A stretch of 32,000 nt of DNA from Candidatus Omnitrophota bacterium. Lineage in GTDB: Bacteria; Omnitrophota; Gorgyraeia; Zapsychrales; JANLHA01. Position 1 is the first letter of the stretch, and each line of letters starts with the position of its first letter. The position numbers and the translations under genes are program-made. Positions 1-30,300 of this stretch are shown here, in pieces. Where the stretch lies: contig OY759724.1 in NCBI GenBank assembly GCA_963662715.1, positions 750,001-782,000 of the forward strand. Reading direction: 5' to 3'. A model generated the notes under the pieces. It searched no databases. It worked only from the letters and a program-made list of their open reading frames with translations, and was not told the origin of the DNA.

Positions 1-350
1 TTCCGGGATGATCCGGTTGTTTTCATATGGCGATAAGTTGACCCACAGTTCGTCTTCAGGGACCGTCAAAGCCGCCAGGAAATACTTGATCAGCCTCTGT
101 GACTCGGCTTCAAAAGAGGCTCCTTTTAAATCCCTGTCTCCCGTATCAATAATGAAATCAAACTGCAGAGGGTTGTCCGGATGGATGGTGAGCCCCCGCA
201 GGATCGCCGGCGCGAATGTCTCGCTGATCGAAAGGATCGTCCCGGGCTGCGGCAGAGAGAAGACAGCGGCACGCTCTTCTTTGGCCCACCCCGGTGTCGG
301 CATAAGGACGGACGACAATAAAAAGACCGCCGCCATACCCGCCGATAAAA
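1..350. repeat. Copy A of a ~350-bp near-identical segment (5' coding end of a giant paralog)
   Basis: I aligned it by hand to 8357..8706 and counted about 19 mismatches in 350 nt, only 5 of them in the first 210 nt. Identity collapses beyond ~350 (codons 1-18 and upstream). Confidence 0.85.
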
Positions 351-402
351 AGCGGCGCGGGATTGTTTTCAATTTATGATTTGTCGGCTTATGCCTATTC
401 AT
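1..402 (-). CDS. Giant secreted protein paralog, first 134 codons only (gene continues beyond window start)
   Basis: The minus-strand frame is open from ATG 402..400 down to position 1. My translation is MNRHKPTNHKLKTIPRRFLSAGMAAVFLLSSVLMPTPGWAKEERAAVFSLPQPG...WVNLSPYENNRIIPE. It is almost identical to the first ~130 residues of the 2770-aa ORF (same signal peptide and head domain). It is missing from the ORF track only because the window edge cuts it; + ORF 8..379 is its antisense shadow. It starts 37 nt after the stop of the 2770-aa gene on the same strand. Confidence 0.8.
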   Translation of the reverse strand, partial: MNRHKPTNHKLKTIPRRFLSAGMAAVFLLSSVLMPTPGWAKEERAAVFSLPQPGTILSISETFAPAILRGLTIHPDNPLQFDFIIDTGDRDLKGASFEAESQRLIKYFLAALTVPEDELWVNLSPYENNRIIPE

Positions 403-439
403 TTCAATCTGATTCCATGTCTTCCAAAACTAAAATAAC

Positions 440-3400
440 TTAATTCAGCCAGCTGATATCTTTTTCACGGCCGGCATAAAATTTTTCCCGGCTGTCAGAC
501 GGTAAGGCTGACCGCCTTGTCGCCGAAGGAGGACTTTCTTCCGGCCCCTCCTCAGTTAAACCTAACAATAAAGGAATATTCACCGGCGCGATGTTAATGA
601 TAACCGGCAAAAACCCGTCAATTCTCATATCACCCACCGGCTGCTGCGGCAAAGGCAGCGGCACGCCCTGGCCGTCCCGCTTGATCTGCAGATCAAGTGC
701 GGCCGGGTTAAAGTCAATACCGCCTAACGGCGAAGAGGCCGGTTCAGGTTCTTTCCCCAGTTCATAGCGTTTAATCTCCTGCCGATAGTCCCTGGCCCTG
801 TCCTGATAAAACCAGCGCTCGGACAAGACCACGGAATCCACGTCCACGTCTCCCCAATGTTCATAGCGAATATCTTCAATGGCTTTTAAAAGGATCTCCG
901 GTTCATCTCCGGTTAAATCTTCAACAATCCAGCCAAAAGTCGCATGAGCGACAAACGGATCAAACTTTGGGCCCTTTTGCGTCATATCAAAAAATTGATC
1001 CTGCAGGCCCTTCACTTCATCCCGGGCATTGTCCGTCATTAACATCGGGATAAAAATGGCTTTGCCCTGAAACATGCCTATCCCCTGAGCCATGAATTTA
1101 AAGGCACCGACCCGCCCCGGGATAAGCTGATCAAGCACAGCCACGGTTTCCTCTGTCACTTGCTCTTTCTGCCGGGGATCAGTCGTAAAATATGTCACTG
1201 AAGCATACGGCAGCGAGGGCACATCCCAGGCGATCTTATCAATGATCGATTGGGGAAGACGCGCCTTAAGCGCTTCCTGCGCTTTGGCCATGATCGCCTC
1301 CGGCATATTAAAATGCAAGAGATGTTTTAATTCCTCCTCCATCATCCTTTGGTCTTTCTGCACGGGCGTTCGTAAGGCCTCCTGCCACTTCTGTTCAAAG
1401 ATATCCCAGCTGGCCTGATATTCCGGAAGGATGGCGACCGGAGAACTTGCAGTATCAAAACTGTCAGTAATATTAATGACCTCGGCCTTATCTTTTTGAT
1501 GTATTGCGCTTGATACATTTTCATTTAACCGTTTTGTCCATTCGGCATATTCTTCTTCATACCCTTGTCTTGTCGCATTAGGTATTCTGTGCTCACCTAT
1601 AACTTCAGTATCTCTTCCCCACGTTTGGTTTTCCGGGCCGGCACCTTCATTAGGATCCCATAAGATTGGGAATACAAGTTCTTCTGGCTCTCTGGCAATA
1701 CGATCCAGAAGGGCTTCCATGGCCCTTTTGTATAATTTTACTGCGGAAGCACCTCTATATCCCCGACCCCATAAAATATCAGAAATAATTTCGAGTCTCA
1801 TATCAGGATATCTCCGGTGATGGGTGTCGATAAACTCCACGATTTCATCTTCTGTGACACCCCCTGTTCTTAAAATTTCTTCAAGAGCGACAAAAGTTTC
1901 CTTGTTCCTCAGAAAATCTTTGATCTCAAATAGAGAACGAAGGGTTTCTCTGTCTTCAACCTTCCCCAATGCTTGCATAGTCCATATTCTCGAACTCAAT
2001 GGGGCCTCATAAAAACCTTCACTATATTGACTTGCTCTTAGATAAGCACCCGCCAATTCCGCCTCAGACACTTCTAATGTTTTTAATGCTTGATCCACTG
2101 CTTCTAAAAGGTCAATATCCGCCTCGGAAAACATTTTCAGCAATACCGGGACAGCCTTCTTTACGCGTAAATTTTCCAACACTTTAACAGCATTTAATTT
2201 TGCGGATTTCCCTTTTCCTTTCTCAAGGATACTTATGTAAGTGTCAATAAGATCTGAGAGGGCCACCCCCAATTTGTTCAAGGATGATTCCACCGCCTTT
2301 ATCAACGGCTCGTCATCCTCATAAAGCAATCCTGTGAGAACTTCAATCGCCCCTTTATTATCTAAATCAGCTGAATCTCCCAACAAATCTCCTAAAGTAC
2401 GGACCGCCCTAAGCCTGGCGATTCCTTTTCCTTTCTGTGCCGCCATAATATAGGCCTTTACTAATTTTTCTTTTGTTACGCCTAACTTTTCCAGGACTCC
2501 TTCAACGGCATTTAAAATCACTTTATTTTCTTCTGACAATAAATTCAATAAAGGTTCTGCCGCGTTTCCCTTATGGGAATCAGCAATAAAATCAAGAATA
2601 CTCAGTCTCACAGAGTCGGGGACCTGATGGTTGGCAAGTATTTTATATAATACGTCATCTATTCCTGCGGTATTCAACAAGACTGAAAGTATCGGTTCTT
2701 TCCTGTCGGAGTTTATTATCATCCCCGTTAAAATTTTCACGGCGGAGACCAAAGGAAGCTCTTTAGCTATTTCTTTTATTTGATCGTCACGGATATCTTC
2801 TCTAAGGACTACAAGAATCTCCTCTGCTTTATAGGCATGCGTTGTTTTAGGATTTTTAAGGACTCTGATCAAATGCGGTATTATTTTAGCGCCATAACCT
2901 ATCATTCTTTCCTTTGACAGTTTATTGTAATAATCATTACTATCAATTCTTAACAAATGGACATTGCCTCGCATCGTATGAAGTCTCCAAAACTTGTATA
3001 TCTTCCAAGCCGCTGTTAACGCTATCGCCCCGCCGATCGTGTACTCATTGATCAGTCCCGCCTCGGTCAAAGGCCGGGTGAAAGACAAATCGACAGTTTG
3101 TCCGTTTGCGACAGATAACAAACCGCCGTTTAAAACGCCGGCGAGGGTTATCGGCGAACTTTGCAATTCGGAATCAGCTGTCACCACCGGAGAAGAAACA
3201 GGACTGTCTGACGTACCGGTTTGCACCAATTCTATTCTTTCTGGAATAACGCTGACAAGTTCATCCCGTGCCGGCTCTATTACTTTTACTTGATCCCATG
3301 CCTCAACCCATCTCGTCTTTCTGGGCATTGTATAACCGGAAACATAGGAGACATCATCATAATCCTCATATTCATCCAAATAGCCCTCATGATGAATCGT

Positions 3401-6400
3401 CTCGGTCACCGCCTCATGATGTTTGTGTTCCGTCTTTTCCGGCCGGTAATTCACCATAAAATTATCACCGGATAAAACAATTTCTAATCCTTCGATGAAA
3501 AACGCGGCAACCTTATTCTTCGGCAATATCGCATTAAGACTCGCATAGGTTCGGTTGACGGCTAATGTTCGTGCATCGGTTAACCCATATATATTTGATA
3601 TATGTATAAAGGCGTCTATAACACCTAAACTTGTTGCCTCGAACATAACATCATAAAGCGCATCTAAAGCCTTGACGTCCGCCAGTTCCGCAAGTCCCCG
3701 GGCTATGCTTTCGGCATGATCTTTACTTCCCTGCAAGGCAGTGATAAGAGCCGTCACAAACCGTCCCTTATCAACACCGGCATTGAGCAGATCCCGGCTG
3801 AATCCCGGTCGTGAAAAAAGTGTCAACGCTCTTTCCAAATTAATAACTTTTATAGCCTTGATATTCAAATCTTCAAGATATTCATCAAGTCGGGACAGGC
3901 CAAACGCCCCTTCTTCATGCTGTTTTAAAATCCGCAAGTAATCCGCCAGCCCCGCCCGGGTATTCAGGCCCAAAGACTGCAGGAAAGACAGCACGTCCGC
4001 CCTAATGATATAAAGGTCTTCTCCGTCCTTTTCCCTGGCCAGGATATCTTCACCTAAACGCATATACCTGTCATCAGCCGTCTCTCTCAAGTATTCGGCC
4101 AATCTTCTTACCGCGTGTCTCTTAAGGTTATAACCGGCGCCCGGATACGGCTGATCAACCCACTCTACAAGTATGCCTGCAAAACTCTCCTCATCTCTCA
4201 TTCGTATAATATCCAACAGTTCCGCCTCTAAAACTCTCATCTGTCCAGGAGTCGGAGATCTCAGATTTCTTGCCCACTGGATATATGTTTGAAGGTCTCC
4301 CTGAACGCCGAACCGCTCCAAAGCAAGCATAAATAAGACACGGTTTTCCGGCGTAACAGCTTCATTCAAACGCGATTCCAGAAGCGGGACAGCCGTCTTT
4401 CTGTTGAGTCCGGCTGTTATTTGAATAGCCGCGTCACGGTCAACAGCATTAGTGCTCCTTAACAGGGATTCCAGGCTCCCCAACCTTCTCTTTCTTATAA
4501 CAGTATCCGTTATTTGGGCAACCACCGCCGGTTCTGACAACAATCGATACAAGTCCTTTTTGTCGAGACTTTTTACCCGTCTTAATCTTTCGCCCTCGGG
4601 CGCCGGCTGCACTTCTTCGATGTCTTTAAAAGCTCCCGGCATACGGTTCAATGTCCTTATGATCCGTCCATAATCTTCTCTGGTCGAGCAACCCAATGAT
4701 TGCAACATTTCATCCGCCGCTTCCCTGATAACGACAATTTCCGCTGATTGTTCTCCCTCGCCAATGGCTCTATCCTTGCCGAACTTATCAAAGAGGGGCT
4801 GCCGGTTTTCTGCCTGAAGTTCAAACATCCTTCCCACGGCAAATATTCTCATTGCTTGATCAACGTCATCCCCCAACCATGCTGTTAAAAGGCTTTTATA
4901 GTTTTCCTGATCATATTCCTTTAAAACATCCATCCCCTTAAAGACCTGCTCAGGAATACGCCCTGCGGAAGCTTCATGCACTCCTTGCAGCCACTCCAAT
5001 AAAGCCGGGACGTGCCCCTGTTGACCAAGCCGCGCTAAAATATAATTCAAGAGGACACGCATGCCTGCATCGTTTTTTGCCTTTATCAATAAAGGTTGCA
5101 GAAGCGGGATCGCAGCCCGCATATTTAAATGGGCAATGAGGTTTAACGCAAAAACATGAATATCCCTGTCAGGATGATCCAGTAAGGACCTGATATGGTA
5201 TAAAGTAAAGTCCCCTGCAAGACTGGTTAATGATTCCAATATGCTCTCTTTAACAGCGGCCCCCCGGTGATCTCTGTCTAATCTGAAGCGGAAATCATAC
5301 AACAAAGAAATCAACGGCAAAATAGCCTGTTTGCTTTGATATATTCCCATACCTTTAATGGCGTCCATGATTTCAGAATAATTATCAGTTAAATCAAGGC
5401 CTTTCTTTGTCACACGGAGAAGAATTCTTCTATACACTTCAGCTTTTTCTTCATCACTCAAATCATATTGCTCCAAGAGTTTTCTTTTGGCCTTATACCT
5501 TGTCCAGGAATAAGAACCATCCAAGCCATAAAACGCACCGCGCTTTGTTGTGTGCCGCCATAATCCCCATACCGTCCCCAGCCCCCCGGCGGCTATCGCA
5601 GCCCCGATGGAATAAGCATTAATGAACTCTGCGCCGGTAACCGGAGAACTGACATACTTCTGCCCTTCCTCTAATAATGGAGAAACAAAAGACAGGTCGA
5701 CTTGCTGTCCTTTAGCAATGGAAGTGAATCCATTCTTGAGCGCCCCGGCAATAGTCCCGGGGATAAAACCGGACAGGTTAATACTTGTGATTCCCGATGA
5801 AACGCGTTGAATATCCGCGGCTGTCATCTTTTCCACCGGGTAAACGTTGCCTTTCAAGTCGCGATAAAACGGGTTATCTCTTTCCACCGCTTCTTTAATG
5901 CGTTTCATCTGCCTGTTCAGGCTTCTGGGAACAAAGATGTCTCCCCGTCTCCCCGCCCACTCCGGCAGTAACTGTTCATTCATCAGGCGAAGGTTAAGAA
6001 TAATACCATGCTCTTTCGCAACCTGATCAAAAAGCGAAAAAAACAACTCATAGCCAATGAGATTGACAATATAACGAATTTTACGCATATCAAATTCATC
6101 TAATGAAACTGGTTCTCCAAAAGTCGAAAAACTGGTTTTTCGATCAATCAGCTCCCGCACTTCCGCAAACTCTATCCAGAATTGGCTTGATTCAACAAAC
6201 TTACCAATTAAATCCTGAACCGTCTTCAAATAAGTGTTCATGTCCGAGGTCGAAGTTGCAATGCGGTAAGTTTCGGATATGCCGGATTCTTCCAGCTTTT
6301 CTTTAACACGCGCTCCCAATGCCTGATAAAAATCTCGGCGGGCCTGCTCCAGCCTCCGGGTTTCTTCTCTTGTCAACCGCACTTGACTTTGCCTGCCAAG

Positions 6401-8752
6401 AGAAGACGGTTCTGCAACTTTGGCAATAATGTTCAACTCAGGTATCTTTAGATCTTGTTCGGGCAAAATATTAACAGGAAGCATTTCTAAAGCGGGTTTA
6501 TTTTGTTGGCTCTGATGATAATCGTCCAGGAGTTCCCGCGTCACTATCAAATAAAAATTCTGGTATTTATCCACCGCAATGGCCTGCACCGGATAACGTT
6601 TAAACCCGTCCGGACCTTGTGTATAAAAATAATCCTTAATCCCTTCTGCGGCATAATCTGTGGTTAAATCAGTAAAAGAAAAGATTATTTTTCGATCACT
6701 TAAATTAATCTCCGTAGCAGCTACCAGCTTTTTGTTCGTATCACGCACGCCTACTGTAAACATCAACTCCTTCATACCTAATTGCGACGTCTGCCAATGT
6801 ATTGAAAGATATTTATTATTAAATTCGATTAATCCATACTGCCCCTGCGGGTCCTGCACGACATTCACCCCTTGTTGTTTTTCCAATGCTTGGGCGAGCT
6901 GGGTGTAAAGATTCTTGACCTTCCCCTCTGCCGAAATCGCCGAGGAAGCATTGTCAGGTGGGATAGGAGTAGATATCGATATAACCGAAATTCTTTCCGG
7001 GATAACGACTTTTTCTTCATCCATTTTTTGTAGCATTAACGATCCGGTAACATATCCATCAGTATGATCCTCTCCTTCTCCGACAATTACATATCCAGGA
7101 GGGATAGAAGATCGGTCCACGGTTTCACCATTGCTAATGGCGGCAGATCCATAACTTATTCTTTCCCCGGGAATATATTGTATTTCTTCTTTTTCAGGAA
7201 TATACTCAACTTTAAAATCATTCCCTCCTTTTCTGATCTTCCAGGCCTCATGAAGATGCCTTAAAACTTCGTCATCAGCTTTTAATTTTGTCGATTTTCC
7301 TTCCAGCACTTGTTGAACTCTTCCCCTCAAATCCTCCTCAACTTGAAAAAGATTTATGACGATAGGATCATCTTTAGCTGTTAATTTCAAGTTAGATAAT
7401 GCTGTGTTAACTCTTTGAATATTCGAACTCCCAAGCTTGAATAAATTCCAGCTAATATATAACCGCTTTAATATCGGGGAAGAACTCCCTTCTGTTGGGG
7501 ATAAATCATCCAACCCTTTATCTGCATTCTCAACCAGCTCGATGCTCACCCGTCTGTCCTTACCCTTCGTCGACTCAGGCTGCGTGATCGCCGAACTCAC
7601 GCGTCCCGGCAGCCGGCCCGGCTGGCCGCGCAAGACCTCCAGTTTGTCCACCGTCACAACGCCTACGCCCAACCCCCCGGAAAAATATTTCCGCGGTATC
7701 ACCTGCTGCGTCGCTTCATCGTAATCTTCCCGTATATAGTTGTAGACGCCTTGCTTGAACGCGTCCAGATACTGCTGGTATATCTTCTCCTTTATCTCTT
7801 TGTCTTCAACATCGATCCCCTTCACCTTGTTCCGGTCCATGTACACCTGGCCCAATAAACTGTCCCGCAAATTCTTCTTGTACCAGGTCGCCAGGATCAT
7901 TGAGTTGTAGATCTGCCGCAAGTTCGCGAACGTCTGCCCTTCATTCACTTCCTTCTCTATCGCCGGAAGGATAATATCCTTGACGATCTTTGAGGACAGT
8001 TCATTCAGCTCCTTGGCCTGCCCTTCTGACTGTTTGTGCAACCCCAGGTCTTTGCTCTGCAGATTGTGCTCTAACGCCAGATAATCCTCTTCCAGCATCA
8101 CCTTCAAGTGCCGTTCCACCACAAACGCGCTGCCCTCATGCTCATAGACAACCGCCTTATCCGGCACGATCCATACCTTATTAAATGTGTTTACCGGGAT
8201 GTTTGTCGTGCCGTACAGCTCATAGGCCTTTTTATAGACTTTATTCCAGAACGCCTGGCCCAGGTCCTCTTCCGGATACATCAACGAAGCGGTGAGCTGT
8301 TTCAGCAGGTAATCCTGGGAGAGCATGTCCTTGCCCATTTCCGTAACGCCCAACCCTTCGGGGATGATCCGGTTGTTTTCATATGGCGATAAGTTGACCC
8401 ACAGTTCATCTTCGGGGACCGTCAAAGCCGCCAGGAAATACTTGATCAGCCTCTGCGACTCGGCTTCAAAAGAGGCTCCTTTTAAATCCTTGTCTCCCGT
8501 ATCAATAATGAAATCAAACTGCAGAGGGTTGTCCGGATGGATGGTGAGCCCCCGCAGGATCGCCGGGGCAAATGTCTCGCTGATCTTAAGGATCCTCCCC
8601 GGCTGCGGCAGGGAGAAGACAGCAGCCCGCTCTTCTTTGGCCCACCCCGGTGTCGGTATAAGGACAGACGACAATAAAAAGACCGCGGCCATGCCGGCCG
8701 ATAAAAGGCGGCGGAATATAATATTCGACTTTGTTATAAATAACTCAAACAT
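440..8752 (-). CDS. Giant (2770 aa) secreted modular protein: signal peptide, conserved head domain, two hydrophobic-helix + HEAT-repeat arrays, conserved C-terminal tail motif
   Basis: This is the longest ORF in the window. The N-terminus has a basic stretch (FRR), a hydrophobic core (LLSAGMAAVFLLSSVL) and PTPGWA/KEE, which looks like a signal peptide. Residues ~45-375 form the head domain shared with the 27311..32000 ORF. Recurrent A[IV]P[LV]L..L motifs indicate HEAT/PBS-lyase-like repeats. The C-terminal GGIDFNPAALDLQIKRDGQGVPLPLPQQPV...FLPVIINIAPV motif is shared with the other giant. All + strand ORFs inside it are short antisense shadows. Confidence 0.9.
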   Translation of the reverse strand: MFELFITKSNIIFRRLLSAGMAAVFLLSSVLIPTPGWAKEERAAVFSLPQPGRILKISETFAPAILRGLTIHPDNPLQFDFIIDTGDKDLKGASFEAESQRLIKYFLAALTVPEDELWVNLSPYENNRIIPEGLGVTEMGKDMLSQDYLLKQLTASLMYPEEDLGQAFWNKVYKKAYELYGTTNIPVNTFNKVWIVPDKAVVYEHEGSAFVVERHLKVMLEEDYLALEHNLQSKDLGLHKQSEGQAKELNELSSKIVKDIILPAIEKEVNEGQTFANLRQIYNSMILATWYKKNLRDSLLGQVYMDRNKVKGIDVEDKEIKEKIYQQYLDAFKQGVYNYIREDYDEATQQVIPRKYFSGGLGVGVVTVDKLEVLRGQPGRLPGRVSSAITQPESTKGKDRRVSIELVENADKGLDDLSPTEGSSSPILKRLYISWNLFKLGSSNIQRVNTALSNLKLTAKDDPIVINLFQVEEDLRGRVQQVLEGKSTKLKADDEVLRHLHEAWKIRKGGNDFKVEYIPEKEEIQYIPGERISYGSAAISNGETVDRSSIPPGYVIVGEGEDHTDGYVTGSLMLQKMDEEKVVIPERISVISISTPIPPDNASSAISAEGKVKNLYTQLAQALEKQQGVNVVQDPQGQYGLIEFNNKYLSIHWQTSQLGMKELMFTVGVRDTNKKLVAATEINLSDRKIIFSFTDLTTDYAAEGIKDYFYTQGPDGFKRYPVQAIAVDKYQNFYLIVTRELLDDYHQSQQNKPALEMLPVNILPEQDLKIPELNIIAKVAEPSSLGRQSQVRLTREETRRLEQARRDFYQALGARVKEKLEESGISETYRIATSTSDMNTYLKTVQDLIGKFVESSQFWIEFAEVRELIDRKTSFSTFGEPVSLDEFDMRKIRYIVNLIGYELFFSLFDQVAKEHGIILNLRLMNEQLLPEWAGRRGDIFVPRSLNRQMKRIKEAVERDNPFYRDLKGNVYPVEKMTAADIQRVSSGITSINLSGFIPGTIAGALKNGFTSIAKGQQVDLSFVSPLLEEGQKYVSSPVTGAEFINAYSIGAAIAAGGLGTVWGLWRHTTKRGAFYGLDGSYSWTRYKAKRKLLEQYDLSDEEKAEVYRRILLRVTKKGLDLTDNYSEIMDAIKGMGIYQSKQAILPLISLLYDFRFRLDRDHRGAAVKESILESLTSLAGDFTLYHIRSLLDHPDRDIHVFALNLIAHLNMRAAIPLLQPLLIKAKNDAGMRVLLNYILARLGQQGHVPALLEWLQGVHEASAGRIPEQVFKGMDVLKEYDQENYKSLLTAWLGDDVDQAMRIFAVGRMFELQAENRQPLFDKFGKDRAIGEGEQSAEIVVIREAADEMLQSLGCSTREDYGRIIRTLNRMPGAFKDIEEVQPAPEGERLRRVKSLDKKDLYRLLSEPAVVAQITDTVIRKRRLGSLESLLRSTNAVDRDAAIQITAGLNRKTAVPLLESRLNEAVTPENRVLFMLALERFGVQGDLQTYIQWARNLRSPTPGQMRVLEAELLDIIRMRDEESFAGILVEWVDQPYPGAGYNLKRHAVRRLAEYLRETADDRYMRLGEDILAREKDGEDLYIIRADVLSFLQSLGLNTRAGLADYLRILKQHEEGAFGLSRLDEYLEDLNIKAIKVINLERALTLFSRPGFSRDLLNAGVDKGRFVTALITALQGSKDHAESIARGLAELADVKALDALYDVMFEATSLGVIDAFIHISNIYGLTDARTLAVNRTYASLNAILPKNKVAAFFIEGLEIVLSGDNFMVNYRPEKTEHKHHEAVTETIHHEGYLDEYEDYDDVSYVSGYTMPRKTRWVEAWDQVKVIEPARDELVSVIPERIELVQTGTSDSPVSSPVVTADSELQSSPITLAGVLNGGLLSVANGQTVDLSFTRPLTEAGLINEYTIGGAIALTAAWKIYKFWRLHTMRGNVHLLRIDSNDYYNKLSKERMIGYGAKIIPHLIRVLKNPKTTHAYKAEEILVVLREDIRDDQIKEIAKELPLVSAVKILTGMIINSDRKEPILSVLLNTAGIDDVLYKILANHQVPDSVRLSILDFIADSHKGNAAEPLLNLLSEENKVILNAVEGVLEKLGVTKEKLVKAYIMAAQKGKGIARLRAVRTLGDLLGDSADLDNKGAIEVLTGLLYEDDEPLIKAVESSLNKLGVALSDLIDTYISILEKGKGKSAKLNAVKVLENLRVKKAVPVLLKMFSEADIDLLEAVDQALKTLEVSEAELAGAYLRASQYSEGFYEAPLSSRIWTMQALGKVEDRETLRSLFEIKDFLRNKETFVALEEILRTGGVTEDEIVEFIDTHHRRYPDMRLEIISDILWGRGYRGASAVKLYKRAMEALLDRIAREPEELVFPILWDPNEGAGPENQTWGRDTEVIGEHRIPNATRQGYEEEYAEWTKRLNENVSSAIHQKDKAEVINITDSFDTASSPVAILPEYQASWDIFEQKWQEALRTPVQKDQRMMEEELKHLLHFNMPEAIMAKAQEALKARLPQSIIDKIAWDVPSLPYASVTYFTTDPRQKEQVTEETVAVLDQLIPGRVGAFKFMAQGIGMFQGKAIFIPMLMTDNARDEVKGLQDQFFDMTQKGPKFDPFVAHATFGWIVEDLTGDEPEILLKAIEDIRYEHWGDVDVDSVVLSERWFYQDRARDYRQEIKRYELGKEPEPASSPLGGIDFNPAALDLQIKRDGQGVPLPLPQQPVGDMRIDGFLPVIINIAPVNIPLLLGLTEEGPEESPPSATRRSALPSDSREKFYAGREKDISWLN
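8357..8706. repeat. Copy B of the ~350-bp near-identical segment (5' coding end of the 2770-aa gene)
   Basis: Same manual alignment as for 1..350, at an offset of 8356 nt. Confidence 0.85.
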
Positions 8753-8868: not shown

Positions 8869-8897
8869 AGTATATATGATTAATAGAAAAATGTCAA
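8869..8897 (-). promoter_or_regulatory. Sigma70-like promoter for the giant-gene pair (TTGACA-17-TATACT)
   Basis: The minus strand reads TTGACA (8897..8892), then a 17-nt spacer tttttctattaatcata, then TATACT (8874..8869), about 115 nt upstream of the ATG at 8752. The perfect 14-bp palindrome CTAATATATATTAG (8855..8868) abuts the -10 box. Confidence 0.55.
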
Positions 8898-12388: not shown

Positions 12389-12428
12389 ACAGGCTTATTC
12401 CTTATTGAGGGGATGAGCCTGTTTTTTT
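12389..12428 (+). terminator. Rho-independent terminator (riboswitch expression platform)
   Basis: An 11-bp stem pairs 12390..12400 (CAGGCUUAUUC) with 12411..12421 (GGAUGAGCCUG, including G-U pairs). The loop is 10 nt and a run of 7 T follows at 12422..12428. AGCCUG also occurs inside the aptamer (12361..12366) and could pair with CAGGCU 12390..12395 as an antiterminator. Confidence 0.7.
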
Positions 12429-12513
12429 GGCCAAACGAGGTCAAAGGCCAAAACAGGAATACAAAAGCTCTGTGACCACTTTTCAGCCGGGTCTGCCTAG
12501 AAAGGAGACACTT

Positions 12514-12747
12514 ATGCAACGAATGAGATGGGCGGCTCTAATCCTCTTGATGGTGATTTCTCCGTCTTTGGGACAAGCGGAAATGCTGGCAAAAACCTCC
12601 GTGCTTAACAAACCACAGAAACAAGAACAGGTCGTTAAGAAAAAAGGCGCGATGATCAAAATCGGAAGTGTGCCTTACAGTAAAGACGGAGTGCTGAGAA
12701 AAGGAGCTGCGCTTAAAATAGGCTCCTATCCTTTGACCGAAAGTTAA
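12514..12747 (+). CDS. Small secreted Lys-rich protein (77 aa) with an internal GxxxKIGSxP repeat
   Basis: ATG 12514 is preceded by AAAGGAG (12501..12507). The protein begins MQRMRWAALILLMVISPSLGQA/EM, a signal peptide. The mature part contains GAMIKIGSVPY and GAALKIGSYPL. It lies downstream of the riboswitch and terminator. The longer track ORF (from 12427) would start inside the terminator. Confidence 0.65.
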   Translation: MQRMRWAALILLMVISPSLGQAEMLAKTSVLNKPQKQEQVVKKKGAMIKIGSVPYSKDGVLRKGAALKIGSYPLTES

Positions 12748-21717: not shown

Positions 21718-22716
21718 CTACGGCATATCCACACCGTCTAAAATTCTGTCCACCAGATTCTCGGCCGTTATGTTCAGCCCGCGGGCCTGGTAACTTTCGA
21801 TTAACCGATGGCTCAGAACATCCCGGGCCACAGCTCTGATGTCCTGCGGCCGCACATAAGCCCGGCCCTGAACCAAGGCGTAGGCCCGGCTGGCCACGGA
21901 AAGATGTATGCCGGCCCTCGGTGAAACACCGTATTTAATAAGCCCGACTAAATCATTCATCCCGAACTTATCCGGCTGGCGGGTTGCTTCAACAATATCC
22001 AAGATATAATCCTGCACCTTTTTTTCGATATGTATGCGGTCTACAAGGGTTCTGAGCCGCAGGATATGTTCAGGGTCCAGGACGGGATTGACGTCGAATT
22101 TGACATCGGTAAAAGCCATGCGCTGCAGGATCAACGCTTCTTCCTCCCGTGTCGGATAAGTCATCGACACCTTCAACATAAACCGGTCCAATTGAGATTC
22201 GGGCAAGGGATAAGTCCCGTCCTGCTCTATCATGTTCTGGGTGGCGAGGACTAAAAACGGCTCTGTTAATGCATAAGAGGCATCCCCGATCGTGACCTGC
22301 CGCTCCTGCATGGCTTCCAGCAGCGCGCTCTGGACTTTGGCCGGGGCACGGTTAATTTCATCCGCTAAAACAATGTTGGCGAACACGGGCCCTTTTTTAA
22401 CATAAAAAGACGCCGTACGCTGGTCGTACACCGGGGCCCCGGTTAAATCCGCCGGGAGCATGTCAGGGGTAAACTGAATACGGCTGAACTGCAGCTGCAC
22501 GGCCATGGCGAACGTTTTTACGGCCAGGGTTTTCGCCAGGCCGGGCACGCCTTCGATGAGGATATGCCCTCCGGCGAGCATCCCCAGAAGAATACGCTCA
22601 ATCAGGTCCTTCTGCCCGACAATAACATTTTCTATCTGCTGAAAGAATTCTCCGAATTTCCGAGACTCGTGCTGGATTTCTTTTTCTAACTCTTTCATCG
22701 TAGATTCTTTCATCAT
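21718..22716 (-). CDS. MoxR-family AAA+ ATPase
   Basis: The sequence reads VGQKDLIERILLGMLAGGHILIEGVPGLAKT (MoxR Walker A, GxPGxAKT), then LADEINRAPAKVQSALLEAMQE (Walker B/sensor region), then ATQNMIEQDGTYPLPESQLDRF. The size (332 aa) fits. Confidence 0.9.
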   Translation of the reverse strand: MMKESTMKELEKEIQHESRKFGEFFQQIENVIVGQKDLIERILLGMLAGGHILIEGVPGLAKTLAVKTFAMAVQLQFSRIQFTPDMLPADLTGAPVYDQRTASFYVKKGPVFANIVLADEINRAPAKVQSALLEAMQERQVTIGDASYALTEPFLVLATQNMIEQDGTYPLPESQLDRFMLKVSMTYPTREEEALILQRMAFTDVKFDVNPVLDPEHILRLRTLVDRIHIEKKVQDYILDIVEATRQPDKFGMNDLVGLIKYGVSPRAGIHLSVASRAYALVQGRAYVRPQDIRAVARDVLSHRLIESYQARGLNITAENLVDRILDGVDMP

Positions 22717-22740
22717 ATATCCCCTCTCCTGTTTTCTTCC

Positions 22741-25700
22741 TTACCAGTAAAAAATCCGGTTTTCATCTCCGGCCAGCGTTTCAACCAGATTTTTTTCACT
22801 CATCTTAGCACCGACCATAAAAATATTCATCTTTTTTTCACGAAGAGGACTCATCCGGATCTCCTGCTCCGTTCTCTGCATAAAGTCCGTCAACGCGACC
22901 TGCTGTAAGAAAACATCATTTTCTTCAGACGTATAAAAATCCAATCCGGAGATATCCAGCGTCATATGCCCGGCGATGCTTTGTTCATATCTTTCTTTGA
23001 TCTTCGTCAAAATTTTCTCGGAAAAAGACAAACAGTCTCTATCGGCAGAAAGACGTACGGGATATTCATGCAACGTTCCCGTGGGGTCAATCAAAATCAG
23101 TCTCTCTAACACCGTTTCGGAACGGAACAGATGGAACATTTTGACCGAACGGGCAAAGTCCCTGGCCCAAAGCCTTCGGCCCTCTTCATAATGCAAACCC
23201 CTCATATCCAGCCACAGGGCGACGCGGGCCCCGTAAGGATTGCTGAAGCGTCTGACCATGGGAACGGATGTGGCATAGCGCGCCGTGGCCTTCCAATCAA
23301 TGTGCCGGATATCGTCTCCCGACATATACTGCTCAAGCCGGTCAAACTCCACGCTCGTTTCATTGTTTTCCGGGATTTTGTCTCTCAGAAAATTAAAATT
23401 CATATGGGTCACCCGGGATTCCTGGAGGAGAAAGTCAAAAACCAGGGGTTTGACCCTGTCCAGGACATTGTCTCCTCGCGCCTTGGGGGCATTCTTCTGC
23501 GGCGGGGTATAAGTGTAAAAGATCTTTTTAAAACGGCTGTATAAAGACGGACAGGACGCTGTTTCCCGGATTTGAGTCAGCATAGACGCGATACTGTCAT
23601 TATATTCTTCCCGCAGATGAAAATATTTCTGCACCGGCCATATCCATAAAGCACGGCCCAGGTAAGGCCCCAAGAACGGCAGAAAAAACAACAGGTCATG
23701 CGCCTTGTTAACGACAGCTGATTTCTGCGGATTCAAGGGCGCCAGGAAAAGACAAACATCAAAAATAAACCGTTCTTTATCGCTGGCGGTTGATTTAAAC
23801 GCGCAAATATCCTTTTTAAGCTGAGGGTCTATCTGCCCTTTGGCAAGATAAACGCGTTTCAAAAGTTTCCTTTCCCGCTGTTCGGCTCCGAAGCTGTAGC
23901 CTTTGGCCCAGGGATTGTTGTTATAAATGCGGTCGATAATACTGGCCGGATCCCGGCCGTAAAACCTGCGTTTTCTATACGGAGCTCCCAGGGTATGAAT
24001 AAAGAATGCCGATAAGTTGAAAAAGATGAAGACAAAAACAGCTGCCGCGATGGATTCCGCGCTGGTAGCCTGGGGCAGGTGTTCGGAACGATAAAAAATC
24101 AAGCTGAGGGCATTGCGCAAAAATGACCACAAATGAAAGCCCCCTCCAACGCTGTCGGCTGTCCCGTCAAAAATAAAACGGGGTCCGCTTCTGGGGCCGA
24201 CCAAACCCACGCCGCCCAGGATATAACCCCGCTGTGCGATTCTGTGATCCGTTCCGTAAATGACTTCCTGAAAATTTGACATGACGGACATGTACCGGCC
24301 CGGCTCGGCCGTGGACAAATATTTCTCCGGTTCGCGATAAAGAAGATACGCCACTTCATGAAGAACATCATTGTCCATTTTTTGGATGTCGGCGGCGATA
24401 CGCCGGATGCGGTCTTTTTCAAAACGGTTGGAGATCAAAGGAGCTTTCCGGCCGGGGTTCTGCTCTGACAAATAAATGGACAGCCCGTTAAGAATCCCCT
24501 TGGAAGCTTGAGAATAATGGTCGAATTCATCCCCTTTTAAGGTTTCGGCCACCAGTCTCTGAGAGATGTACTCCTTCCGGTCACCGGCCCATAAAACCGG
24601 GGCCAGCATAGAATTCAATTCAATATTTTCGGGTAACGGCTTATTTTCAAAACGAAAACGCAGGTGATCAACGACGTGTCCCGTTTCATGAAAGGCCGTC
24701 CATTCCACGTGAGAAGTCATCCGGCGGAAAACAATGGCAAATTCACCTTCAAAGTATCCTGCCCGGTCAAGAAAAGGATACTCCTCTCCTTCCACGACAT
24801 AAGAAACAGCCGGCCACAACTCTGATCTTTTAACCTTCTCCCTATCCATTCCCAGACGCTGAAACGCCTCTTCAGCAAAAACGTACCGTTTTAAGATCGG
24901 TTCCGAGAACAAAAAAAGATAAGGAACGTCCTCTTCCAAAATAATAAAGGTAAAAGGAAAAACATTATAAGAGATAAATGCTCTTCTCAGATCCAGAAGT
25001 TCATTTCTTAAAGCCCCTTCCTGTATGGTCTGCTGCCCGAACAGCGTGATGATATTGCCGATAGAACGCGCGATACGTCCGTCAAGATAATAAGCCGCTT
25101 CCACGACATCGTTCTTCAGCTGGGCATCCAGGTTCCAGTCTGCCATCAGCAGAAAAAAACCTTTGAGGATATGCCGGCAGAAAAAGAGGAACCCTTCCCG
25201 GGAACGGTAAAGCCTTTTAGCGTAAAAAACGCGAAGATTATGTCTTATCTGCTCCGGAGAATAAGTTTCCCCGATAGCTGCGACCCGGGTTTTGAAGTAT
25301 CCTTCTTTTTCTTTATCGGCGAGGGATTCGGCATCAAATTTGAAAATCTTTTTTAGCTCAAAAACAAAAACCCGCCATAACCGGTTATCCGCATCCGTCC
25401 GCTCCAGGGCGGCCAAACAGAGTCCGGACAACACAAAAGCCAGAACCAAAGCCGCCGTTAAATTTCGAAATCTTTTCCGCTGGCCGGCCCGGACAAACCG
25501 GACAAAAGGATCGACGGTACGCCGGTACATATCCTTAAGCTGGTCGGAAAAAGGATAATACCCGTGCAGCCAGTCTTCCAGTCGGATAAGCCAGGCGCTT
25601 TTCCCGGAGCCTTCCTCCCTGAAATCTTCGGGAACGGCGGCCGTTAAAGTTTTCTGAGCTTCTATGAAAAGCCCGGTCATGGCTTCCTGGGCCATAGTGA

Positions 25701-26316
25701 TCTGAAAACGGTTACGCAGGTTATAATGACTTTCCGTGAGGATAAAACGCAAATACCGGTAAATATGACCGCATAACTTATGATAAACAACCCGCCAGGG
25801 GCTGGTGTTGGCCGGGATGCGGTCCAATTGCCGTTTAAGAAGATATATTTCGCGTTCCCGTGCCTCGGGCCACAGGCCTTTTTTAGCTTTATCTTCCAGG
25901 TCCTTCCAAAGATCGCTGGCCTCTTTTTCAACACGGTGACGTTCTTTATCGTGCCGTTTTCCCGGCTGTTTCCCGGGCAGATTTTCTTCGGCGGGCCAGC
26001 GCAGATCGGCATAAAACGCGATCCATCGCCTGGTTTTAAAATAAATAGCATCAATCTGTGACAAATATTTCAGAAAAAACGGCTGTAATTGCGGCTTGTC
26101 CGCCGGGGTATGTTTCTGTAACGACAGAATATATGCCCTCAGGCGGTGATGGGATAATTCCACCTGCCGGTCGATAGATAAAATACTTAATGTATCTGCT
26201 TTGGGATGGCGGATGCTTTTTCGATAGGCATCTTCTAATCTGCGGATATGCTTAAGAGGCTCTTCGCTCAAATTCTCGGAGAGAGCGAAAAATTTTTTAA
26301 TAAAAGAAAAAGTCAT
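22741..26316 (-). CDS. Large (1191 aa) membrane protein: N-terminal region with HExxH motif fused to a C-terminal DUF58 domain
   Basis: The DUF58 signature YMSGDDIRHIDWKATAR lies at about nt 23280..23320. HETGH lies at nt 24676..24690 in the context EWTAFHETGHVVDH. Hydrophobic helices LTAALVLAFVLSGLCLAAL and AAAVFVFIFFNLSAFFIHTL are present. The stop is 24 nt before the MoxR start. Confidence 0.85.
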   Translation of the reverse strand: MTFSFIKKFFALSENLSEEPLKHIRRLEDAYRKSIRHPKADTLSILSIDRQVELSHHRLRAYILSLQKHTPADKPQLQPFFLKYLSQIDAIYFKTRRWIAFYADLRWPAEENLPGKQPGKRHDKERHRVEKEASDLWKDLEDKAKKGLWPEAREREIYLLKRQLDRIPANTSPWRVVYHKLCGHIYRYLRFILTESHYNLRNRFQITMAQEAMTGLFIEAQKTLTAAVPEDFREEGSGKSAWLIRLEDWLHGYYPFSDQLKDMYRRTVDPFVRFVRAGQRKRFRNLTAALVLAFVLSGLCLAALERTDADNRLWRVFVFELKKIFKFDAESLADKEKEGYFKTRVAAIGETYSPEQIRHNLRVFYAKRLYRSREGFLFFCRHILKGFFLLMADWNLDAQLKNDVVEAAYYLDGRIARSIGNIITLFGQQTIQEGALRNELLDLRRAFISYNVFPFTFIILEEDVPYLFLFSEPILKRYVFAEEAFQRLGMDREKVKRSELWPAVSYVVEGEEYPFLDRAGYFEGEFAIVFRRMTSHVEWTAFHETGHVVDHLRFRFENKPLPENIELNSMLAPVLWAGDRKEYISQRLVAETLKGDEFDHYSQASKGILNGLSIYLSEQNPGRKAPLISNRFEKDRIRRIAADIQKMDNDVLHEVAYLLYREPEKYLSTAEPGRYMSVMSNFQEVIYGTDHRIAQRGYILGGVGLVGPRSGPRFIFDGTADSVGGGFHLWSFLRNALSLIFYRSEHLPQATSAESIAAAVFVFIFFNLSAFFIHTLGAPYRKRRFYGRDPASIIDRIYNNNPWAKGYSFGAEQRERKLLKRVYLAKGQIDPQLKKDICAFKSTASDKERFIFDVCLFLAPLNPQKSAVVNKAHDLLFFLPFLGPYLGRALWIWPVQKYFHLREEYNDSIASMLTQIRETASCPSLYSRFKKIFYTYTPPQKNAPKARGDNVLDRVKPLVFDFLLQESRVTHMNFNFLRDKIPENNETSVEFDRLEQYMSGDDIRHIDWKATARYATSVPMVRRFSNPYGARVALWLDMRGLHYEEGRRLWARDFARSVKMFHLFRSETVLERLILIDPTGTLHEYPVRLSADRDCLSFSEKILTKIKERYEQSIAGHMTLDISGLDFYTSEENDVFLQQVALTDFMQRTEQEIRMSPLREKKMNIFMVGAKMSEKNLVETLAGDENRIFYW

Positions 26317-27310: not shown

Positions 27311-30300
27311 TCAGAAAACATCCTGCTTGGCGCCGGCGTCTAACGATGACAGCTGATCTTCATCGCCGGGCTCAACGTCCGAATCCGAACCGAATAACAG
27401 CGGGAGGTTGGGAACAGGGGTGATATTAATAATAACAGGTAAAAATCCTCCGATATCCATCTGCTGAACAGGCTGCTGCGGCAGAGGCAAAGGAACGCCT
27501 TCCCCGTCACGCTTGATCTGCAGATCCAACAGTTGAGGATTAAGATTGATACCTCCATACTGCCCGTTATCAACAACCTCTTCCGTTATCGCCGATTGAA
27601 ACAGGGGTGACGATGCAACCGCTTGCTGAATGATCTCCTGGCTAGGCAGATAAAGATCTCTGCCGTCGGACAATTCCGGCCTTCTCAGCTTCTCGACATT
27701 ACCGTCAGCAGCGAACAAATTTTTCATAACTTCATTCCATTTGGCTATATCCTGCTCAGACATGTCACGGACCGGCTCCAGCAGACGATCAACTTCAGCC
27801 AGCAATCCCTTTTCCCGGCTTAATTCCAGGAAAACCTCTTGGAGAGCTTCTTCCGGATTAGCCGAATGCACCGCATCTTCAAAAATGGTTTCCGTGCCCC
27901 AGGCCTGGTAAAGAGCCGTCTCAATATCCCCCTCGACTAAATTATCATAAATAGTTTTTAAAGGTTCCAGACCTTCTCTCCCGAGTAAATCTTCAAGATG
28001 ATGGATCAGGTCCCCCCGTCTGTTATAAGCCGTGCCGTTGTTGGAGTGATGCGCAATCACTCTGCGCAGCTGCTCGCCGCTCAGCTTAAGCCGTTCATAG
28101 GTCGCAAGGAAATCCGCAACAGAGGGCTCACTGCTCGCGATATTCTGAACGCCCTTCTCATTAATATACTGCCAGAAAAAAGGATCTCTGTCTTCCACGG
28201 GTTGATCCAACGCCGTCAATACGGCTTCCTTATGCTCCAGCAAGTCGTTTATCAACCGGGCCCGCTGGGTCTTCATCTTAAGAGCAAGCTGTAACAACTG
28301 CAATTGGGCCCTGGACTGACTCTTTTCCACATCAACTTTAGGGGAGGTCCGCAGGGCATTATACAGAAGCTGTTTACTCTCTGTATTGAACCTGTTGCCC
28401 AATCTTGCCAGTCCGACCAAAAGATTGCCGGCCGACGGGCGCCGGCCTCCGCCTTCCTGCTGGCTTTTCCGGCCGCTATACTTAATCAGATAACCGTTTC
28501 TTATTTCGTATTCCCCGTATTTCAGCCCGCGCAACAATTCATTATGAGTGAGGCCGGTTTTAATGACATCGACTCTCTGCCCGGTGCGCACGTCAATCAC
28601 ATCAAACAGTTCCGGCATCGTCCCGCCCCAGACCCCGAACATAAAAGCGCCGTTGGTAAGGGCCTTCATCATACTTGTCGCAGACGCTTCCAGAAACTCG
28701 TCCGACAACATAATCGTCGCCGCCACCCCGCGGAAAATCAGCGGAGCGTCATAAGGGTTGTAATTTTCAAGAAAGGCAATTTGATCCCCGAGGCCCAGAT
28801 CCTTGACCATGCCTTTCAACTCTTCGAACAGCTGATTGGCTTCGTGCCCAAAGATTCTTCCGCCCAGAGCCAGCCGCATCTTGGAATCCCGGAACTGTTT
28901 AAGCGCTCTGGGGTCCTTTAAAATCCCGAGGATCTCTTTATAAATGTCCGGCCCTTTATAAGGCACCTGCCGGCGAAGGTTCGCCGCAACAGGGTTCTGA
29001 ATTAAAACATCCTTCAATTTCCCGAGTTTCTCATCCAAGGCTCTCCATTGTCCCTCATTCTTAACATCCGCTAAAGCCTGATTAAGCAGGCCCGCATATT
29101 CTTCCCGTAAAGCCCTGACGTCCGTCTGGCTGTCCAGCCCCGATTCCTTGAGGAGCTGGGCAAGCCACTGGGATCCACCCAAATCCTGCGTCTGGTTCTC
29201 CTGTAACCAGAGATAAAGGTCCATCATATACAGCACCTTAATCTGCTCAAACTGGCTCTGAAAACGGGCCAGCTCAGCGGGGTTTTCTTCCAGTTTGTCA
29301 TAAAACTGCACGTCGTCTGTTTGAGCGGTTAAACCCAACGATACTTTGTAATCATCAATGATGCTTCTCAGTTCATGGCCCTGCCACTGGTCAAAAAGGA
29401 CCCCGTTGCTGTTACGCTGCTCTCCCTGATACCATTGCCAAATTTTATGCGCAAGATCAGGAAGCAGATTGTTTCTCAAGACCGGAGTATGTTCATACAC
29501 ACTGACCCCCATAAAAAGATCGACATTTTCCGCGGCATACCTCACGATATCGATAACATCCCGGCCGCCTTCCTTAAAGACAATGGCCTGCCGGTCTTTC
29601 TCCTCAAAACCCATTAACTTAAAGGCATATTCCGGAGGGTTGTACATCGCCGGCTTATAAACACTGTGGTTGATCTCGGCCCTCATGGCTGTTTCCGTGA
29701 CAGGCGGCTGCTCAATCCCAAGCTCGGCGAGATCCATTTGTTCGTTTTTCGGCAAGCTGACGAAAATTTCATTTTCCACCCAGGTGACTTTACTTTTTAT
29801 TCTCCCGTCCGCCTGTAACATCCTGGCGAACCGCTGGGTCGCCTTGTTGTACACAACCATCTGAATGACCCGCCAGTCCTTGGCCGGGGAAATCTCATCA
29901 GAATATATCTCGTCAAAAATATACTGTTTGTTCCCGTCATCATCAAGATAATAGGCGTCTTCATAAAACTCCGGAAGCGTCGTGAAGGAAGACTCCAGTT
30001 CATAAAGATCAACGGTGATCGGGCGCCCCTGCGCCTGCGCCAGCAATTCCTTCATTTTGGCGAATTTTTCATCATCCAATTCAGAAAAAGCTTCCCGGGC
30101 CTCATCTTCTAATCCTTTAAGCACATACTGGCTCTGATCGAGATACCCCATCTGGATCAGACGCGAGGAAAGGGCTTCGGCCAGTCCGCCATCTACGCCA
30201 AGCTGTTCCAGTTCCTGCTTGGAAACAGCTCGGCCGACCAGCTGTTTCGCCTTGTCAAAAACGGCTTTGTTTCTGAAATCCGTATCATTCAACCGTAACG

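Follow-up and report, generated by a model that had tools for sequence, protein, structure and literature searches.

The Omnitrophota are ubiquitous, uncultivated bacteria, described as ultra-small epibionts and predators, and their large and giant proteins are considered their most striking and least understood feature. Large multi-enzyme proteins bearing signal peptides have been published from this phylum (West-Roberts et al. 2023 bioRxiv 10.1101/2023.11.21.568195; Nielsen & Lui 2026 bioRxiv 10.64898/2026.06.07.730766), 39% of the published giants being predicted to have a signal peptide together with transmembrane helices and 9% a signal peptide only (10.64898/2026.06.07.730766). Their N-terminal regions "generally lack identifiable domains" and their open reading frames (ORFs) are "poorly conserved", and no conserved head or tail is mentioned in the accessible parts of these accounts (10.1101/2023.11.21.568195; 10.64898/2026.06.07.730766; Seymour et al. 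2023). The present work deals with a stretch of 32,000 nucleotides from a Candidatus Omnitrophota bacterium (GCA_963662715.1, contig OY759724.1, positions 750,001 to 782,000), hereafter the window, in which a six-frame ORF listing and its translation reveal three co-oriented minus-strand genes, ORFs A, B and C. To judge by their sequences, the three are paralogues of an Omnitrophota-wide modular family with a 'head-cargo-tail' layout, i.e. a constant N-terminal head of ~325 residues and a constant short C-terminal tail bracketing middles that are unrelated between members. The ends may serve as sorting or anchoring modules of exported envelope proteins, a reading to which we give about an even chance.

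Architecture of the three proteins and of their family

ORF A (440..8752; all family features given below lie on the minus strand) encodes 2770 residues, an exact copy of which, P0153, is present in a public protein collection. It consists of a signal-peptide-like segment (residues 1-38; 8639..8752), the head domain (residues 39-364; 7661..8638), a HEAT-rich cargo, the tail motif GGIDFNPAALDLQIKRDGQGVPLPLPQQPVGDMRIDGFLPVIINIAPVNIPLLLGL (residues 2677-2732; 557..724) and a C-terminal extension (443..556), which starts acidic, has a net charge of about -1 and ends with ..REKDISWLN. ORF B (27311..32000; at least 1562 residues) has the head at residues 1-335 of its visible part (30995..31999), a glucan-phosphorylase-like cargo, and the tail motif at residues 1482-1537 (27389..27556). 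Its frame is open from the stop at 27311 to the end of the window, with 1562 codons in 27311-31999, and since the homology to ORF A begins at residue 3 of ORF B, the true start must lie beyond the window. ORF C (1..402) shows its first 134 residues—predicted signal peptide and beginning of the head—before running off the start of the window. The first 62 residues shown of the protein P0154 (1553 residues) match ORF C, and P0154 shares one contig of 3,360,633 bp with P0153; by this match, ORF C is the N-terminus of that tandem paralogue.

The comparison of A with B by BLASTP yields exactly two significant segments, one covering the head (A48-384/B3-335; 203/337, i.e. 60% identity; E = 1e-125) and the other the tail (A2677-2731/B1482-1537; 43/56, i.e. 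77% identity; E = 1e-21), with no significant segment between them. A constant head and tail around unrelated middles had already been claimed in a sequence-only reading of the window; the positions and motifs it named hold, and the head ranges it gave (7672..8638 and 31054..32000) agree with those delimited here.

In order to see how regularly the two ends go together, hidden Markov models (HMMs) of both were run on every stop-to-stop ORF of 80 head-seeded loci from species-representative genomes. The tail was detected at E<=1e-5 in 60 of the 72 complete head ORFs. Concerning the remaining 12, six contain runs of masked N (L019, L027, L054, L059, L067 and L074), two of these resuming with the tail in another frame, so that the apparent count of head-only genes is inflated by masking in 6 of the 72 head ORFs; four or five have a tail that is divergent but still recognisable (GGI..GF.P.I..P...LLG), one of these belonging to the masked group as well; and two are short and consist of the head only. 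All confident tail-only ORFs of this set but one are 5'-truncated or form the downstream half of a split gene; the one from locus L015 that does not is a marginal match (E = 1e-4). The reverse test, performed with 79 tail-seeded metagenome loci, found the head in 39 of the 42 tail ORFs with an intact 5' end; one more has the head in frame but interrupted, and two are tail-only. Among cluster representatives, the tail is present in 106 of 145, in 105 of these at most 72 residues from the C-terminus, while the remainder look 3'-truncated. The head and the tail are thus near-obligately paired, whichever end is used as the seed, in agreement with the co-occurrence that the sequence-only reading had proposed as a check on itself.

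The family is large. A word-indexed search with the head retrieved 1274 proteins, the best 120 of which are 53-70% identical to it, nearly all the named ones among these 120 being 'hypothetical protein, Candidatus Omnitrophica/Omnitrophota'. It should be noted that the protein lengths returned by this type of search (316-555 residues with the head, 61-183 with the tail) are misleading, since the long members found by exhaustive search are missing from it. The exhaustive HMMER search, covering 1.84 billion representatives of clusters formed at 50% identity, matched the head in 8054 clusters at E<=1e-3, of which 6340 also pass E<=1e-30; among the best 150 of the 8054, the head occupies positions ~40-365 without exception, in proteins of 420-5312 residues. 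In a scan with a single genome for each GTDB species, at least 573 head copies were confirmed, several per genome, and among the matches listed the genome sources are metagenome-assembled genomes (MAGs) of Omnitrophota or MAGs labelled 'uncultured Planctomycetales' or 'bacterium'. Two or three family copies occur in 21 of the 80 loci. Complete members in the genome loci have 774-3535 residues (median 1524), 11 more with over 3670 residues lying at a locus edge, and the middles range from a 0.2-kb equivalent to more than 4.5k residues. With thousands of database proteins carrying the same layout, the shared architecture is far beyond chance.

Modules, cargo and genomic setting

Neither end could be assigned to a named family; the sequence-only reading had likewise attached the head to none. 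Searched in isolation, the head and the tail match no Pfam or NCBIfam family even at E<=10, and the head finds no PDB sequence at E<=10, either by phmmer or with a 103-sequence profile; the tail is without a match among PDB sequences, too. The AlphaFold model of the head, based on 103 homologues, is of good quality—predicted local distance difference test score (pLDDT) 88.4 and predicted template-modelling score (pTM) 0.86—and describes an alpha/beta domain with three beta hairpins and about eight helices. Foldseek returned no match for it in either the PDB (best E = 0.13, TM-score <= 0.17) or BFVD (best E = 0.12). The top Foldseek rows, i.e. pore-forming toxins of the NheA/MakA/ClyA type, the V-ATPase subunit a and colicin Ia, were dismissed as noise (TM-scores 0.09-0.17, root-mean-square deviation >20 A), as was a likeness of the long head hairpin to a beta-tongue, the hairpin being amphipathic and not hydrophobic. 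A weak DUF5095 match (E~0.015), likewise set aside, recurs in both A and B only because the two are homologous. The invariant positions of the head include WVNLS, T..G, Y.LK and E.N....F...RQ.........W.K; in our own reading of the conserved positions, the head seems to be without an obvious catalytic Cys/His/Ser constellation. The heads are 55-70% identical across the phylum, and old paralogues share about 56% everywhere.

The tail, aligned from 170 unique sequences, spans about 55 residues with the consensus V-GGI(D/N)LNP.LLDLQIKRDG.G.PLP..QP followed by (I)(E/D)GF.PVIIN(I/V).PV.N(L)P(L)LLG. The GGI is conserved at 99%, the G and P of GF.P at 99% and 96%, respectively, and the I and P of the hydrophobic core at 96% and 98%; three prolines of the core are nearly invariant and two of its asparagines conserved, and 127 of 157 tails have precisely 36 residues from GGI to GF.P. 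The conservation of residues, the fixed spacing and the prolines and asparagines of the core point to a mini-domain that is specifically recognised, as opposed to a membrane anchor of a generic kind. In a low-confidence AlphaFold model of the family member P0164 (727 residues, pLDDT 58.6), the tail is modelled as three beta strands and not as a helix, the strand with GGID reaching a pLDDT of ~82 in the otherwise poor model. The extension behind the tail has a median of 25 residues (range 0-76) and is net negative in 69% of the tails. About one third of the members end with ..(E)(E)[LVI]-S-x-L-(N)-COOH, for example ISWLN, LSRLN, LSYLN or VSSLN; ORF A ends with ISWLN (443..457) and P0154 with ..NLSRLN, while ORF B lacks the motif and ends with ..KQDVF.

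The N-terminus of ORF A reads ..FRR-LLSAGMAAVFLLSSVLIP-TPGWA/KEE, where the slash marks the cleavage site predicted from hydrophobicity and inspection. Of all the 19-mers of the protein, that in the tail is the most hydrophobic (Kyte-Doolittle 1.99), followed by that in the signal segment (1.94). A hydrophobic N-terminal segment is present in 88 of 106 members, and the family N-termini that were inspected have an n-region with Lys or Arg, an h-region, and a c-region mostly ending with ..YA/Q. In most members the predicted ..YA/Q cleavage would leave an N-terminal Gln, A and C having ..GWA/KEE instead; pyroglutamate formed from an N-terminal Gln is a hallmark of exported Porphyromonas proteins. 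Transmembrane-like segments are scarce in the cargo (0.22 per 1000 residues).

The cargo of ORF A does contain HEAT repeats, as the sequence-only reading had it: HEAT_2 (PF13646) scores 40.1 bits against a cut-off of 27.7, the best match being located at residues 1189-1256 (4985..5188; E = 4.6e-10), and the cargo of P0154 gives 42.6 bits with the same family. For the GT35-like cargo proposed for ORF B, all the matches are partial and sub-threshold—TIGR02094 with E = 2.6e-6 and 26.5 bits (cut-off 191.7) and the Pfam Phosphorylase family PF00343 with E = 0.0045 and 15.7 bits (cut-off 27). The weak stretch resembling GT35 alpha-glucan phosphorylases (residues 1026-1136; 28592..28924) contains EASATSMMK, which is aligned to EASGTSNMK, the pyridoxal-phosphate lysine motif of the glycogen phosphorylase 2c4m from the PDB (E = 0.15); an SGGLG motif is found ~600 residues upstream.

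Pfam scans of 75 further members, in addition to A and B, revealed a wide range of cargo. Besides the HEAT repeats as scaffolds, it covers sugar and carbon metabolism (hexokinase, UDP-glucose pyrophosphorylase, phosphoglycerate kinase, PGM/PMM, PGI, PfkB and the starch-synthase GT5), cofactor-dependent enzymes (radical S-adenosylmethionine (SAM) with a B12-binding domain, methyltransferases, NUDIX, metallophosphatase and an ARMT1-like phosphatase), signalling (PP2C, GGDEF, receiver domains, FHA and ABC1 kinase), and also DnaJ and the M48 peptidase.

ORF A contains, in addition, an internal Gly/Ala-rich hydrophobic module in two copies (residues 984-1080, 5513..5803; residues 1851-1932, 2957..3202), which combines an SSP linker with an amphipathic stretch rich in Gly, the string ..Q.VDLSF.., a hydrophobic stretch rich in Gly and Ala, and W+..T.RG. 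Its hydrophobicity of 1.17-1.34 leaves its nature as a membrane segment ambiguous; it may form a hairpin in the membrane, which would alter the topology of A. Outside A it is found only in the close relatives P0157 (twice) and P0160 (once), and it was therefore discarded as a family-wide membrane module. A further short motif, [AGSV]SSP[VIL], recurs at domain borders, also directly before the tail, for example at residues 423, 1034, 1852, 2435 and 2672 of A and at residues 346, 382 and 1462 of B. SSP[VIL] is family-wide 8-9 times commoner than in shuffles (57 vs 6.75) or in neighbouring genes, and may serve as a linker or be a site of processing or glycosylation; at 0.3 per 1000 residues it was not accepted as a defining family feature.

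With regard to their origin, the modules of A, B and C have not evolved in step. ORF A is 93% identical to the comparable residues of ORF C (116/125; BLASTP) and 94% identical to P0154 over residues 8-414, after which the cargo is unrelated and the tail 59% identical. This combination (A-C: head 94%, tail 59%) set against that of A and B (head 60%, tail 77%) indicates modules with separate histories. The DNA of A and C is ~95% identical from an abrupt start within the signal-peptide codons, the DNA upstream of it being unrelated. General concerted evolution of the heads in tandem arrays was rejected, heads from the same locus having a median identity of 58% against 56% for all pairs; in the absence of such homogenisation, the 94% identity between A and C has to be seen as a local, recent event. 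A related organism has a syntenic locus, corresponding to the window at 8.9-26 kb (MoxR - radical SAM - DUF362 - ... - beta-CASP - SSB), in which the place of ORF A is taken by P0122, a gene of 124 residues (L081 10001..10375; L082 2906..3280) joining the family signal peptide to the second half of the tail (last ~75 residues). Its junction lies between two similar strings, SLPQPG at the start of the head and PLPLPQQP in the middle of the tail, and it apparently arose by a deletion between them; the arrangement is present in two independent sequencing runs or samples of the related organism.

Concerning the surroundings of the genes, ORF C starts (402) just 37 nucleotides past the stop of ORF A (gap 403..439), which suggests that the tandem pair is co-transcribed. 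A sigma-70-like promoter match, TTGACA-17-TATACT (8869..8897, minus strand; 11/12), is positioned ~117 nucleotides upstream of the ORF A start codon and is a match to the consensus only. The other genes of the window encode SSB, PspC, a beta-CASP nuclease, a SAM hydroxide adenosyltransferase, a radical SAM protein, DUF362 and MoxR/DUF58. The MoxR-type AAA+ ATPase (332 residues) and, beside it, an unusually long protein of 1191 residues, whose sole recognisable part is a C-terminal DUF58 segment, are encoded directly downstream of ORF B (21718..26316 for the pair, minus strand); at the related locus L081, a similarly long unannotated gene of 1207 residues precedes the MoxR gene. On the plus strand, a c-di-GMP-I-GGC riboswitch aptamer (RF03167; 12299..12376; 65 bits, gathering score 59; E = 2e-13) sits just upstream of a 106-residue ORF (12427..12747) with a signal-peptide-like segment. 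According to published work, genes for the cyclic di-GMP-binding PilZ are found near giant Omnitrophota genes. As a candidate for a dedicated neighbouring secretion or sorting gene, the top cluster of neighbours was dismissed, consisting of generic response regulators at 12 of the 80 loci.

Possible roles of the constant ends

The reading to which an even chance was given above is that of Sec-exported modular envelope proteins, the constant ends of which would be shared sorting and anchoring modules; both export and anchoring are what we infer from the signal-peptide-like N-terminus and the hydrophobic C-terminal motif. The precursor would be exported by Sec, the head and tail acting as shared handling modules and not as catalytic parts. 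The head would serve for docking or assembly and bind one conserved envelope partner, and the tail would be a small beta-rich C-terminal signal for sorting or anchoring, recognised by machinery whose genes lie elsewhere in the genome. New members would arise from swaps of cargo between the constant ends by recombination, A and C being a recent example, and in function the family might stand beside the giant multi-enzyme envelope proteins of the Omnitrophota as their small counterpart with a single cargo. A bolder version—which we regard as rather unlikely—would be a phylum-specific sorting and assembly system, in which the head of new fold and the beta tail send hundreds of different proteins, HEAT scaffolds as well as enzymes dependent on ATP, SAM or NDP-sugars, out of the cytoplasm, into an extracellular coat docked head-to-tail or into an attached host cell, the giants then being concatenated units.

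Several points weigh against export and anchoring. The cargo is typical of the cytoplasm and depends on ATP, UTP, SAM or Fe-S clusters, which one would not expect to be available outside it, and the export of a radical SAM domain by Sec is hard to credit. The signal peptide was called by hydrophobicity and inspection alone, the full-length AlphaFold model of P0164 is poor, and the extension behind the hydrophobic stretch is acidic, as opposed to the basic tail of sortase and exosortase signals. Finally, no sorting enzyme, secretin or transporter is conserved beside the family genes, ~600 neighbour ORFs from the 80 loci having been clustered. Of the terms used in the sequence-only reading, 'secreted' and 'export/anchoring scaffold' are to be taken as putative, based as they are on the signal-peptide-like N-terminus and the hydrophobic C-terminal motif; these loci contain no linked gene for secretion or sorting, and the cofactor-dependent cargo sits awkwardly with a periplasmic or surface location.

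It is this cofactor-dependent cargo of cytoplasmic type that keeps two rival explanations alive. In one of them, the proteins would be effectors directed at a host or prey, with the ends as recognition and translocation modules for contact-dependent delivery and the enzymes rewiring the carbon metabolism and signalling of the host, within which ATP, SAM and sugar phosphates are available. Omnitrophota have been described as epibionts and predators whose large proteins rise on attachment (PMC10066038), and giant genes reportedly lie close to type II secretion and type IV pilus-like loci (10.1101/2023.11.21.568195). The sequence-only reading had suspected a host-attached or predatory bacterium, which fits the lifestyle described for the phylum (PMC10066038), nearly all the homologues being labelled as Omnitrophota. 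The high copy number of the family, with variable cargo and cassette-like exchange, would suit effectors, too. Neither toxin-like cargo nor immunity genes were found, however, the 80 loci contain no linked secretion genes, no known route for proteins of 1500-5000 residues is available here, and HEAT arrays—the commonest cargo in the lineage of the window—are not obvious effectors; delivery to a host is considered unlikely. In the other, the cargo would stay in the cytoplasm, either because the two hydrophobic ends are membrane tethers or because the N-terminus does not function in export, with the proteins forming inner-membrane scaffolds for enzymes and HEAT platforms. This would agree with the nature of the cargo and with the location of the two most hydrophobic segments of ORF A at its two ends; moreover, published topology predictions for the giant relatives differ between programs (10.1101/2023.11.21.568195). 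The basic residues preceding the first hydrophobic segment would nevertheless place the head outside, with normally no transmembrane segment from head to cargo, the c-region ..YA/Q resembles a signal-peptidase site, and a tail core bearing prolines and asparagines and modelled as a strand is unlike a simple anchor helix; such tethering is deemed decidedly improbable.

It is also conceivable, though very unlikely in our estimation, that the head and tail bind each other, within one molecule or between molecules, the tail strands completing the head sheet, so that chains or a coat with mixed cargo would be formed. The obligatory presence of both ends would be explained in this way, the three beta hairpins of the head and the three modelled strands of the tail, including the better-modelled GGID strand, would be compatible with it, and the head, conserved among old paralogues to an extreme degree, would be suited as a self-assembling interface; a protein coat has been proposed for Velamenicoccus (PMC10066038). 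The discordance of head and tail identities between paralogue pairs speaks against it, excluding a specific cognate pairing but not a generic one.

Whichever of these roles applies, the head and tail—55-70% identical across the phylum, in at least 8000 clusters—provide the first conserved handle on these Omnitrophota proteins, which could support a searchable domain definition, the enumeration of cargo per genome, antigens for localisation, and a test of whether the enzymes leave the cytoplasm and by which machinery. Should the ends prove to act as signals for sorting, a new route of protein sorting in bacteria would be defined by them; should the cargo be cytoplasmic, a new kind of membrane-tethered metabolic scaffold would be at hand.

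Comparison with known systems

The polymorphic toxins (Rhs, CdiA and MafB), to which the sequence-only reading had drawn an analogy, share with the present family the constant ends, the variable middle or end, the tandem arrays and the recombination that replaces cargo. The analogy has proved weak, the cargo being metabolic, signalling or HEAT and no immunity-like genes following; A and B contain no Rhs/YD repeat, haemagglutinin repeat or toxin domain at E<=0.1 (Pfam, NCBIfam), and the variable part is internal. Domains of autotransporters or two-partner secretion with a beta-barrel translocator are likewise not found in A or B at the same threshold with the same two collections.

The cargo proteins of the type IX secretion system (T9SS), recognised by their C-terminal domain, are similar in having a Sec signal peptide, as predicted for the present family, diverse enzymes or adhesins as cargo and a small, conserved, beta-rich C-terminal module. 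The predicted cleavage that leaves an N-terminal Gln in many family members is a further likeness, such an N-terminus being typical of the T9SS cargo of Porphyromonas. On the other hand, five isolated tails gave no match to Por_Secre_tail or TIGR04183 at E<=10, and none was obtained with full-length A or B; the family tail of ~55 residues is followed by an acidic extension and is not at the extreme C-terminus, an additional N-terminal domain is obligatory, and T9SS belongs to the Bacteroidota. Concerning the signals for sortase, exosortase and rhombosortase (LPXTG, PEP-CTERM and GlyGly-CTERM), the common features are the signal peptide, predicted in the present family, a C-terminal signature with a hydrophobic stretch, and big paralogous sets with unrelated middles. 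The differences are that no Pfam or NCBIfam model of these signals is matched, that the stretch is proline-rich and conserved residue by residue in the present family, that its extension is long and acidic instead of a short basic cluster, and that no sortase-like neighbour is seen in the 80 loci. Enzymes with SLH or dockerin modules resemble the family in placing one conserved non-catalytic module on many different enzymes, and binding to a single envelope partner in their manner would explain the very high conservation; A and B have no SLH or dockerin match, however, there are two modules here, and the cargo belongs to intracellular metabolism and is not composed of polymer hydrolases.

The closest relatives in kind are the giant proteins of the Omnitrophota themselves, the 'Archaeovorins'. 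They come from the same phylum, carry the same cargo (HEAT_2, hexokinase, PGM/PMM, starch-synthase/GT, methyltransferase, NUDIX, radical SAM and receiver), frequently have N-terminal signal peptides and pose the same puzzle of enzymes of cytoplasmic type predicted outside the cytoplasm. Large multi-enzyme proteins bearing signal peptides have already been published; 'undescribed', as the sequence-only reading put it, holds for the conserved head and tail, which the accessible parts of those accounts do not describe; the two bracketing modules, their pairing and the unmatched head fold appear to be new to that extent. 'Giant' does not suit the family either, its proteins being large but not giant by the standards of the phylum, where the giants have 10-147k residues and the Archaeovorin gene exceeds 90 kb (>30,000 residues), compared with 0.7-5.3k residues for the family and 5312 for the largest member seen here. 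Furthermore, with 0.22 transmembrane-like segments per 1000 residues, the family differs from the most transmembrane-rich giant, which has about one helix per 370 residues, and SecA_DEAD and C39 are not matched in A or B at E<=0.1. Whereas the giants are called poorly conserved, and their N-terminal regions unannotated, in the published accounts, the family described here is defined by two strongly conserved ends.

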